From NCBI RefSeq assembly GCF_044324785.1, contig NZ_CP172133.1: 2,312 nucleotides of DNA, one strand, 5' to 3'. Of this stretch, positions 119 to 1,437 are shown piece after piece. The notes under the pieces are model-generated. The model was not told the DNA's origin. It ran no database searches and saw only the letters and a program-made list of their open reading frames with translations. This DNA is from Escherichia coli. Its GTDB lineage: Bacteria; Pseudomonadota; Gammaproteobacteria; Enterobacterales; Enterobacteriaceae. The number at the start of each line of letters is the position of its first letter. Positions within the stretch are counted from its first letter, which is position 1. The position numbers and the translations under genes are program-made.

Positions 119-616
119 ATGAACATTACTGAAAGAACGGATAGCAAGAAAAAAGTTTTAAGACAAAATATTACTGAGGTTATAGATAGAGAAACTGGAA
201 ACATAACACAAGAAATAACCGATATAACAGTTCAATTTCCACAAGAACCTGCGTATGTGAAAATTTATATTGATAATTTATGTGCTGTCACAAAAGCACC
301 TGATTCTCTAAAAGATGTTTTATTTTTAATTCTTAGGAAATTGGATTATGACGGATATATTGCATTATCAACTAGATACCGTAAGGAGATCTGTAAATTA
401 TTGGGAATAAAAGACGGAACATTACGTAACAGATTGTATTCATTATCAAAAATGGGGATTATTGCTAGTTGTGGCGGTAATGAATATCAGGCGAACCCTA
501 ATTTATTTGCTCGTGGTGAATGGAAAAAAATAATTGAACAGCGTCGCGAGTTTGAAATGAGAATTAAATATTCACCTAACGGTGAAACTATTATAACAAC
601 CGAAGAAATAAAATAA
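119..616 (+). CDS. Winged-helix DNA-binding protein, RepL-like plasmid replication initiator (165 aa)
   Basis: Intact ORF, ATG at 119 and TAA at 614-616. By-eye similarity to the staphylococcal pSN2 RepL family as I recall it: YVKIYIDNL resembles FVKAYIVQL, the central segment LSTRYRKEICKLLGIKDGTLRNRLYSLSKMGII resembles the RepL helix-turn-helix/wing, and NPNLFARGEW resembles NPELLMRGDD. Iteron-like repeats lie immediately upstream. Confidence 0.7.
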   Translation: MNITERTDSKKKVLRQNITEVIDRETGNITQEITDITVQFPQEPAYVKIYIDNLCAVTKAPDSLKDVLFLILRKLDYDGYIALSTRYRKEICKLLGIKDGTLRNRLYSLSKMGIIASCGGNEYQANPNLFARGEWKKIIEQRREFEMRIKYSPNGETIITTEEIK

Positions 617-625
617 TGTGCACCT

Positions 626-655
626 AAATAAGGTCTTTTTAAAAAGACCTTATTT
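626..655. terminator. Perfect 30-bp palindrome (aaataaggtcttttt|aaaaagaccttattt) between convergent genes; putative bidirectional terminator or protein-binding site
   Basis: Positions 626-640 are the exact reverse complement of 641-655. It lies between the repL-like stop (616) and the mobC-like stop (650-652). The stem is AT-rich with a GGTC/GACC core and has no clean downstream U-tract on either strand, so terminator function is uncertain. Confidence 0.35.
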
Positions 656-1075
656 GAATAAATCCGAACCTGGATATTTATTTTTATGTATCCTTTTTAT
701 TATTTTTATTTCATCCTTTATTAAATCCATTTCATTATATACATCAGAAATTCGCTTCGTTACTATTTTCATTTCATCGCAAAGTAAAATTATTTTATGC
801 ATCACCTCGAGGTACTCCTTATCCTTCGGCCGCTTTCCCTTATCAAATAATTTCTTCTGCATCCGACCAAGTCGGATTAATTCATCTAAATACCTGGAAG
901 GTACGCGCTGTTTTATTTCATTATTTAAACTTGCCGTCCTGATATATTCTGAAATTGTCAGTCCTTCGTTCTTCGCTCGCCGTCTGATTTCGCTTGCGAC
1001 TCTGTTATTTACTCTAAGGGTGATAACCTTAGTTCTCTGCCGTACTTCTGAACCACTACGTTTATTTTTAGCCAT
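650..1075 (-). CDS. Ribbon-helix-helix relaxosome accessory protein, MobC/MbeC-like (about 141 aa from the ATG at 1075; the ORF track extends to an upstream GTG at 1174)
   Basis: The N-terminal region has the hallmark basic stretch, beta-strand and helix: RQRTKVITLRVNNRVASEIRRRAKNEGLTISEYIRTASL, matching the KRxxxVxVRLTxEExxxLxxxAxxxGxSxSEYLR pattern of mobilization accessory proteins. I prefer the ATG at 1073-1075 because a GGAGAG Shine-Dalgarno sits about 10 nt upstream (minus-strand reading), whereas the 1174 start is GTG with no good ribosome-binding site. Stop TAA at 650-652. Confidence 0.7.
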   Translation of the reverse strand: MAKNKRSGSEVRQRTKVITLRVNNRVASEIRRRAKNEGLTISEYIRTASLNNEIKQRVPSRYLDELIRLGRMQKKLFDKGKRPKDKEYLEVMHKIILLCDEMKIVTKRISDVYNEMDLIKDEIKIIKRIHKNKYPGSDLFK

Positions 1076-1144
1076 CGCAATGACTCTCCATTTTGCACGT
1101 TTGGGGTGTCGGGGCTTGCCCTGACAGGAGGTATTCTCATGCAA

Positions 1145-1181
1145 GCGAATGTATTCGCGGTATGACGAATACACATCCTGT
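1145..1181. other. Candidate oriT: overlapping inverted repeats (gcgaat-gt-attcgc at 1145-1158; gtattcg-N8-cgaatac at 1151-1172) followed by cATCCTGt (1174-1181), which matches the MOBP-type nic consensus YATCCTG|Y
   Basis: Inverted repeat followed by a nic-like heptamer about 70-100 bp upstream of the preferred mobC-like start, which is the usual oriT placement. The heptamer alone would occur about once by chance in a sequence this size; the adjacent inverted repeats and the position are what make it a candidate. Confidence 0.3.
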
Positions 1182-1437
1182 CCAATTTTCCGCTACAACT
1201 TTTCGACGAAAATAAAATACCGCGTCGTAACTTGGTATTTCTGATACAAAAAAATGATGCTTCATTCAATATTATTTACACAGATTTTAAAATTATTGCT
1301 TGTTATTTAATAAATAACATCGAATTAATTGATGTCTTTGTTGTCTGTCGTTTGTGGATTATTAGAGTGATAAAGATTAGATCTTCCTCGTTATATAATC
1401 CATTGCCTGTTAATGATACGGAGTGAGTCCAAGGAAC

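Follow-up and report, generated by a model that had tools for sequence, protein, structure and literature searches.

The window analysed here, a stretch of 2,312 nucleotides from Escherichia coli (contig NZ_CP172133.1), is a complete circular plasmid of the Col(MG828)/RepL type that lacks a relaxase gene, and it is very probably mobilised in trans by NikB, the relaxase of conjugative plasmids of the IncI complex (hereafter I-complex plasmids), by way of a transfer origin (oriT) and a NikA-like accessory protein of its own. The small plasmid itself appears to supply two of the three relaxosome components, the oriT in cis and the NikA-type protein, whose coordinates are collected in Table 1 with those of the other features. 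Mobilisation by the relaxase of a co-resident plasmid had been suggested in the initial annotation of this stretch, and that suggestion is supported by the evidence set out below, with transfer itself proposed by homology.

The completeness of the replicon is central to this conclusion. Circular PLSDB records of 2310-2313 bp, among them p2EC1-4 (NZ_CP047575) and NZ_CP045208, match the window from end to end in megablast comparisons at 96.6-99.7% identity, and since p2EC1-4 is the window sequence rotated by 756 bp, the ends of the window are contiguous and the window is the entire replicon. Within these 2312 bp no relaxase gene is present, and the list of open reading frames (ORFs) holds no other plausible coding frame; accordingly, the missing relaxase noted in the initial annotation is missing from the whole molecule and does not lie elsewhere in the replicon. 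Two genes are annotated per matching plasmid, one RepL-like and one on the minus strand convergent with it. The nikA-like gene ends at a terminator facing repL, so the canonical order of nikA followed by nikB is absent, and the repL-like gene sits where nikAB operons would have the relaxase gene. The same holds for related plasmids, in which the position downstream of nikA was also inspected: the nikA-then-rep order is common to all relatives examined, and beside close homologues (74-100% identity, on contigs of at most 8.7 kb) the next gene is always a convergent rep gene and never a relaxase. PLSDB assigns the matching plasmids to replicon Col(MG828) and, through MOB-suite, to the class 'non-mobilizable'.

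Equally important is the identity of the accessory protein. Its minus-strand ORF runs over 650-1174 if counted from the first GTG, and the ATG at 1075, which yields 141 amino acids, is a credible true start in view of the GGAG upstream of it, the start chosen by the Prokaryotic Genome Annotation Pipeline (PGAP; WP_001107325.1) and an N-terminus in register with that of R64 NikA. A sigma-70 scan of the oriT region returned no convincing promoter for the gene. The protein matches the Pfam NikA-like family PF21983 (E = 2.1e-16, residues 12-78), scores 99.3 bits with NCBIfam NF041264 (cutoff 80), a model that also names the bona fide IncK2 NikA adjoining its relaxase, and matches PDB entry 2BA3, R64 NikA's ribbon-helix-helix (RHH) domain (residues 1-51), at E = 1e-6. 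Sequence identity is 50% to R64 NikA (98 of its 110 residues compared), 44% to IncK2 NikA and 42% to the pCERC7-type NikA. Homology to R64 NikA extends past the RHH domain as far as query residue 103, and a motif that follows this domain, LGRMQKxLF..GKR..DKEY.EV, is kept in the alignment with the R64 and IncK proteins. AlphaFold modelling from 43 homologues (pLDDT 84.5) places the two RHH helices at residues 24-36 and 41-50, with two further helices after them, one at 60-78 and one of 48 residues at 86-133; a Foldseek search of the PDB with this model matched the RHH domain to Arc and CopG (probability 0.93, E > 1) and gave no significant match over the full length.

On sequence evidence, the protein is a NikA-family relaxosome accessory protein and not a member of the Pfam MobC/MbeC family, PF05713 giving no match at E ≤ 10 in a Pfam scan of the 141 residues. 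The initial annotation had described an RHH accessory gene of mobC type on the minus strand: the RHH assignment is borne out by the PF21983 and 2BA3 matches and by the modelled helices, and the comparison with mobC holds for the role of the protein as an RHH accessory factor, but not as a statement on family. Existing labels differ, PGAP naming the gene 'plasmid mobilization protein MobA' and one other annotation 'IncI1-type relaxosome accessory protein NikA', so that a correct name is already in use in databases.

The RHH protein could also act chiefly in transcriptional regulation, in the manner of CopG, Arc or an antitoxin, and serve plasmid maintenance or copy-number control, with the oriT, if active, relying on the NikA of a helper plasmid. 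This reading, which we consider improbable, can draw on weak matches to CopG antitoxin (E = 0.004), RelB antitoxin (E = 1.7e-4) and other RHH families, on the Foldseek matches to Arc and CopG, on a gene ontology term for transcription regulation assigned by PGAP, on the frequent autoregulation by relaxosome RHH proteins, and on the altered stability of pMUT1 after deletion of its nikA (PMC10859263). However, the NikA-specific signal stands 12 orders of magnitude above any generic RHH match, so that the protein belongs with a relaxosome-specific family and not with generic RHH repressors only, and the homology continues well beyond the RHH domain, to about residue 100 of R64 NikA. The gene, moreover, converges on repL, lies a long way from the promoter of repL and has no toxin gene beside it. 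The repeat arms of the oriT are unlike those of R64 and IncK2, so recognition by a helper NikA is not expected, and 1.5-kb relatives without nikA have an R64-like arm instead.

The oriT itself provides the second line of evidence. The segment 1103-1183 was aligned with six oriTs, those of R64 (NC_005014), IncK2/Z, pMB9292_4 (a plasmid of the pCERC7/pMUT1 type), a 1.5-kb Col(MG828) plasmid, a 2.8-kb plasmid and a divergent variant of the family; the blocks GGGTGTCGGGGC, GCCCTGAC and CACATCCTGTCC are invariant throughout. R64 oriT has an 8-bp repeat and a repeat of about 17 bp upstream of the nick (PMC3817090), and both have counterparts in the window, where order, spacing and orientation relative to nikA are the same as in R64 and IncK2. 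The gene adjoins the oriT (ATG at 1075, oriT from 1103) and is transcribed away from the nick, an arrangement likewise present in R64 and IncK2. From lineage to lineage the long-repeat arms vary in sequence yet remain self-complementary, and all seven oriTs, when folded as single-stranded DNA (ssDNA), form a long imperfect hairpin that ends beside the nick region (z = -4.4 for the window). The nick-proximal arm, 1160-1172, is the presumed NikA binding site, by analogy with the R64 NikA site on one repeat arm (PMC9413875, citing Furuya and Komano 1995). That the arms covary from one lineage to another would fit lineage-specific recognition by NikA.

In the nick region, the core CACATCCTG/TCC (the slash marking the nick) is invariant, and the window carries the R64-like form ACATCCTG/T. 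Cleavage is predicted on the plus strand between G1180 and T1181, 8 nt past the long repeat, a position with which that described by Furuya and Komano in 1991 is said to agree. The placement between G and T is made by analogy with the pCTX-M3 site ACATCTTG/T, a site that has been likened to the one in IncI1 plasmids (PMC8125031). The initial annotation had pointed to an inverted repeat followed by a cATCCTGt motif of the MOBP nic type, and CATCCTGT at 1174-1181 does follow the inverted repeat. The nic consensus by itself carries little weight, with 2 matches in the window against 0.23 expected, and the identification gains its force from the 81-bp alignment with I-type oriTs. The second YATCCTGY match, at 6-13 on the minus strand, was rejected as a second oriT, as it lies inside iteron-like repeats and has no flanking repeats of the oriT type.

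Variation within the family points in the same direction. Family variants differ from one another at 0-4 of the 81 oriT positions, and the most divergent of them departs from the window at 4 of 81 oriT positions against 103 of 426 nucleotides in nikA. Two of these four changes form a compensatory pair (C1136:G1167 to T:A), and a third, G1141 to A, mends a G.T pair. From this disparity and the compensatory repeat changes, 1103-1183 behaves as a selected cis-acting structure and not as a chance similarity. A description of the repeat as an 8-bp pair, TGTATTCG and CGAATACA, in which G1167A would break a pair, was considered and rejected, since folding of the seven oriTs gave a longer repeat in which the change is compensated. 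A further feature of the folds is that GACAGGAGGT (1123-1132) is 90% complementary to ACATCCTGTC in the nick region (1173-1182), which places the predicted nick inside the base of the long hairpin in ssDNA; a shorter pairing (CAGG/CCTG or GATG/CATC) is seen in 7 of the 7 oriTs folded.

Natural cointegrates provide a third, independent kind of record. The IncK2 blaCMY-2 plasmids pTMSA992 (KR905387) and p5312.29 (KR905385) each hold one Col(MG828) unit, located beside their own nikA-nikB at their own oriT. In pTMSA992, two copies of CACATCCTGTCC lie exactly 2312 bp apart, and the DNA between them agrees at 2312 of 2312 positions with the window, once this is rotated to the same starting point. 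Upstream of the left junction, 110 of 110 bp are those of the intact IncK2/Z oriT in pPK8275-82kb; upstream of the right one, 110 of 110 bp are those of the window, and the right copy is followed by the IncK leading region (75 of 78). The same junctions are found in p5312.29 around a different variant (NikA 73% identical) in a unit of 2328 bp, and in both plasmids the crossover is confined to the shared 12-bp CACATCCTGTCC, with flanking identity of 36 of 110. Because different small-plasmid variants were inserted, the two events are independent. Both plasmids are therefore cointegrates with two replicons and two hybrid oriTs, and the arrangement of directly repeated hybrid oriTs around one unit length bears what appears, from its sequence, to be the signature of relaxase-mediated joining of oriT to oriT.

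Such joining is an established property of conjugative relaxases, and Furuya and Komano are said to have described NikB-dependent recombination for R64 in 2003. The paper reporting the two IncK2 plasmids distinguished them by a 2.3-kb fragment between yggA and nikA, which it did not interpret, and its text makes no mention of oriT (PMC5350095). An origin of the apparent cointegrates in faulty assembly or in ordinary homologous recombination, either of which would make them uninformative about relaxase action at the oriT of the window, is the least probable of the alternatives weighed here. The sequences are 454 assemblies of plasmid preparations, and the two oriTs have short identical stretches in common; nevertheless, the authors state that insertion and deletion events in general were confirmed by polymerase chain reaction (PCR) and Sanger sequencing (PMC5350095), and homologous recombination is unlikely because a shared identity of 12 bp with flanks of 36 of 110 is too short for RecA. 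Furthermore, exactly one unit stands between directly repeated hybrid oriTs in the 2312-bp case, and the same junction occurs twice, with variants that differ by 27% in NikA.

The distribution of the family and the selection acting on it bear on whether the module is still in use. Among 5426 complete E. coli genomes the family turned up in 45, and the 56 sites of the nikA-oriT block in those 45 genomes are all on plasmids of 2.2-3.9 kb, with none on chromosomes. A word-indexed protein search returned relatives at 74% identity or more only, while an exhaustive search of 1.84 billion representatives returned 56 relatives at E ≤ 1e-3. The nearest relative with a long C-terminus has 152 amino acids and 43% identity and is encoded by a relaxase-less 2.8-kb plasmid with an I-type oriT of its own. 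This plasmid, which represents a third orphan-NikA lineage, also has a DUF29 gene, and its oriT has the inner palindrome GCGAATGTATTCGC in common with the window and different outer arms. One layout is shared by the three separate lineages with an orphan NikA. In the window's family, all variants have an intact 141-codon ORF without insertions or deletions, and pairwise dN/dS of nikA is 0.13-0.39 overall and 0.03-0.33 by part, covering the RHH domain, the middle region and the C-terminal 46 residues. Given these ratios and the intact ORFs in all variants, the nikA-like gene is maintained by purifying selection.

The initial annotation had also allowed for a remnant of a deleted mob operon, and as a statement on present function this finds no support. 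On that account the nikA-oriT block would be an inactive leftover of a nikAB operon that lost its relaxase gene, and the plasmid would in effect be non-mobilisable, which we judge very improbable. The lack of a relaxase and the MOB-suite class agree with it, and homology of the block to nikA-oriT of the I-complex makes descent from a nikAB module plausible; what it leaves unexplained is selection on an intact gene, the C-terminal part included, an oriT that stays 95-100% conserved where the gene diverges by 24%, with compensatory changes in its repeat, two independent and precise nick-region cointegrates, and the same layout in three separate lineages. The natural cointegrates indicate that the nick region is in use.

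Co-occurrence with potential helpers adds population-level evidence. Of the 5426 genomes, 768 (14%) have a nikB of I-complex type. The test was made on the 60 best nikB matches, which represent the 59 genomes with a nikB closest to that of IncK2, and 6 of the 45 small-plasmid hosts are among them against 0.49 expected (hypergeometric P = 7e-6), namely EC05, EC17CM6, EC100, CFIAFB20190157, PK8275 and PK8261. Strain PK8275 combines a free small plasmid of 2313 bp with two IncK2/Z conjugative plasmids. Single strains (GF4, EC21Z-147) hold up to three variants of the small-plasmid family, and some draft or metagenome contigs combine two or three nikA-rep units that belong to different variants, which could reflect heteromultimers or assembly joins. 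Beyond E. coli, PLSDB copies 98.9% identical to the window come from a pig isolate of Actinobacillus pleuropneumoniae and a human isolate of Klebsiella pneumoniae, which implies spread between genera or, in the Actinobacillus case, contamination.

Taken by homology, binding, nicking and transfer would proceed as follows. The plasmid's own NikA would bind the nick-proximal arm of its own diverged inverted repeat and would recruit NikB from a co-resident I-complex conjugative plasmid; indirect evidence from the cointegrates points to IncK2/Z as helpers, and IncI1, IncB/O and IncK1 are likely ones. NikB would then cut the plus strand at CATCCTG/T (between 1180 and 1181), and the coupling protein of the helper, together with its type IV secretion system of the MPF_I type, would export the cut strand in the 5' to 3' direction, so that nikA would enter last. 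Occasional joining by NikB of the small-plasmid oriT to the helper oriT would give rise to cointegrates. An own NikA matches the presence of arms unlike those of every helper beside a nick region, the presumable relaxase target, that is identical, and the post-RHH region conserved with helper NikAs would fit an interaction with NikB.

Several considerations weigh against mobilisation as outlined. No mating, nicking or binding experiment on this lineage was found in the literature, and the role assigned to the plasmid's own NikA, as opposed to that of the helper, is reached by reasoning from sequence. The cointegrates implicate an event specific to the nick region and do not alone prove NikB to be the catalyst. 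The long repeat of the window, which has one bulge and one G.T pair, is more degenerate than that of R64, and this degeneracy, together with a nick that falls within a stem in ssDNA folds, could make for low efficiency. The co-occurrence test covers the best 60 nikB matches only and is confounded by a common poultry niche and by PK8275 and PK8261, which are probably clonal. Lastly, some hosts may lack any I-complex plasmid: the avian pathogenic E. coli (APEC) strain IMT5155 carries the small plasmid, and we take it to have only a ColV plasmid besides, in which case it may be without an I-complex helper.

A more far-reaching version of the proposal, which we put forward tentatively and regard as rather doubtful, is that the 141-residue NikA with its conserved extra C-terminal helix is a dedicated adaptor that would link a private and diverged repeat arm to the NikBs of several I-complex helpers (perhaps also of IncL/M), independently of helper NikA, and that NikB, by joining oriT to oriT, would repeatedly bring the small high-copy replicon into blaCMY-2 IncK2 plasmids. 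If so, these resistance plasmids would come to have two replicons and two hybrid oriTs, a consequence overlooked in the paper that sequenced them.

Table 1. Features of the 2,312-bp plasmid, parts of its NikA-like protein and the related units inserted in IncK2 plasmids
Feature	Position	Strand	Remarks
oriT core, IncI-complex (R64-like, MOBP) type	1103-1183	+	81-bp alignment with known oriTs; directly upstream of nikA
8-bp inverted repeat, GTCGGGGC and GCCCTGAC	1108-1115 and 1118-1125	+	same in all I-type oriTs compared
Long imperfect inverted repeat	1131-1142 and 1160-1172	+	C1166 bulged; counterpart of R64 17-bp repeat
Inner palindrome, GCGAATGTATTCGC	1145-1158	+	enclosed by long-repeat arms
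Nick region, CACATCCTGTCC	1172-1183	+	identical in R64, IncK2/Z and all small-plasmid lineages
nikA-like gene	650-1075	-	141-aa RHH relaxosome accessory protein; stop codon 650-652
Shine-Dalgarno GGAG (CTCC on + strand)	1086-1089	-	10 nt upstream of ATG 1075; read from sequence
NikA-like protein, RHH DNA-binding domain	residues 1-55		
NikA-like protein, middle region	residues 56-95		conserved with R64 and IncK2 NikA
NikA-like protein, C-terminal helix extension	residues 96-141		lineage-specific
repL-like replication gene	119-616	+	Pfam RepL E = 2e-4, weak; PGAP name RepL
Palindrome / bidirectional terminator hairpin (candidate)	625-656	both	14-bp perfect stem between convergent repL-like and nikA-like genes
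Inserted unit in pTMSA992	6001-8324		
Inserted unit in p5312.29	3767-6106		

The remainder of the replicon is compact. The palindrome at which the nikA-like gene had been said to end, facing the convergent repL-like gene, was readily recovered; as RNA it folds on the two strands with z = -5.9 and -4.1, none of 200 shuffles being as good, and it is consistent with a bidirectional terminator. A 168-residue ORF on the plus strand (618-1124) was rejected as a gene, being the antisense shadow of nikA. Scanned against Rfam at E ≤ 1, the entire window yielded nothing but a chance match to a snoRNA at 620-686, which corresponds to the terminator palindrome, and no match to RNAI. Upstream of repL, three iteron-like copies of (C)CTGTAACGTGT, spaced by about 22 bp, extend over 2283-2312 joined to 1-27, and these copies across the circle junction are probably the RepL origin.

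The other conspicuous element is a GC-rich (about 60% GC) non-coding module of about 460 bp at 1715-2172, in which no Rfam match and no conserved ORF was found. It is about 90% identical to part of the ubiquitous 1.5-kb Col(MG828)/pKL1-like plasmids of E. coli, whose Rep is unrelated to the RepL of the window (BLASTP E = 0.095), and about 900 PLSDB records match it. One portion, 2084-2151, also matches plasmids of 4-5 kb and presumably resembles the ColE1 primosome-assembly region. The module is flanked by a perfect 14-nt direct repeat, AGGAAGCGGAAGAG, at 1438-1451 and 2133-2146, and by the motif ATATTAAAAATATAA, repeated at 1509-1526, 2178-2195 and 2231-2248; these repeats may have been left behind by modular recombination among small plasmids.

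The practical implications concern both plasmid typing and the spread of resistance. Typing based on relaxases calls such plasmids non-mobilisable, whereas the evidence gathered here points to their riding on I-complex plasmids, which are major carriers of blaCMY-2 and extended-spectrum beta-lactamase (ESBL) genes in poultry and humans. Spotting orphan modules of NikA and oriT would improve the prediction of plasmid mobility, and mobilisation would account for the near-identical 2.3-kb plasmids in E. coli, Klebsiella and Actinobacillus. The IncK2 cointegrates, in turn, would constitute a natural record of relaxase-mediated recombination and one route by which small replicons enter large resistance plasmids.

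Among the closest known systems are the oriT-nikA-nikB regions of R64/ColIb-P9 (IncI1), IncK, IncB/O and IncZ plasmids, which resemble the window in the Pfam family of the accessory protein, the combination of an 8-bp and a long repeat, CACATCCTGTCC, and the position and orientation of nikA. In contrast to an R64-type relaxosome, the window has neither nikB nor transfer genes, and its long-repeat arms are different and more degenerate; its NikA has 141 residues and a longer C-terminal helix, against 110 residues in R64, and its replicon is a RepL-type molecule of 2.3 kb.

Also comparable are the MobC and MbeC proteins of ColE1- and RSF1010-type mob operons, which are likewise RHH proteins of small size, bind oriT and help the relaxase, and NikA has been called a distant relative of MobC (PMC9282650). 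The window differs from them in the missing PF05713 match and in an oriT of the I type instead of a ColE1 bom, and MobC and MbeC genes normally stand in an operon with the relaxase gene. TraJ of RP4 (IncP), an RHH oriT-binding protein of the prototype MOBP relaxosome, has the same ATCCTG-type nick consensus at its side and gives a weak signal (NCBIfam PRK13877, E = 5.6e-4), but the protein of the window is far below the family cutoff (20 against 134 bits), and the partner relaxase of TraJ is TraI.

Plasmids that carry an I-complex oriT and depend on a relaxase in trans include pBuzz, which has an oriT only and was mobilised by a B/O plasmid (PMC9282650), pEC156, whose R64-like oriT was mobilised by R64drd11 (PMC4743918), and the 1.5-kb Col(MG828) plasmids. 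None of these oriT-only plasmids codes for an accessory protein, and their repeat arm mimics that of R64, so they presumably need the NikA of the helper too, whereas the window has its own NikA for its own arm. In the 1.5-kb plasmid NZ_CP027131 (1552 bp), for instance, an R64-like oriT at 1449-1532 with the 8-bp repeat, a near-R64 arm and CACATCCTGTCC directly follows the GC-rich module, and nikA is absent; the 1.5-kb plasmids presumably also use helper NikA. Their R64-like oriT earns them the MOB-suite class 'mobilizable', in contrast to 'non-mobilizable' for the nikA-bearing 2.3-kb plasmids.

The nearest parallel is the family of pCERC7, NTP16, pU302S and pMUT1, ColE1-like plasmids summarised as having the same NikA (53% identical to that of R64), a conserved oriT and no NikB (Moran and Hall 2017, via PMC9282650); NTP16 was mobilised by R64 (PMC9282650). 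Common to both are an own NikA with an I-type oriT, the absence of NikB, and the same nick region and 8-bp repeat. The pCERC7/NTP16 NikA, however, has 107 residues and is 42% identical to the 141-residue protein of the window, the oriT has a cleaner 20-bp repeat with other arms, and the replicon is RNA-primed, of ColE1 type with Rop, in place of RepL and iterons with no RNAI match. From these comparisons the window is an analogue, and not a member, of that family. No description of its lineage, as Col(MG828) with an oriT, was found in the literature, and what might be new to specialists is the pair of precise nick-site IncK2 cointegrates and the conserved C-terminal extension of NikA. Since the principle has already been published for pCERC7/NTP16, the gain lies not in a new mechanism but in an additional lineage and a clean natural experiment.

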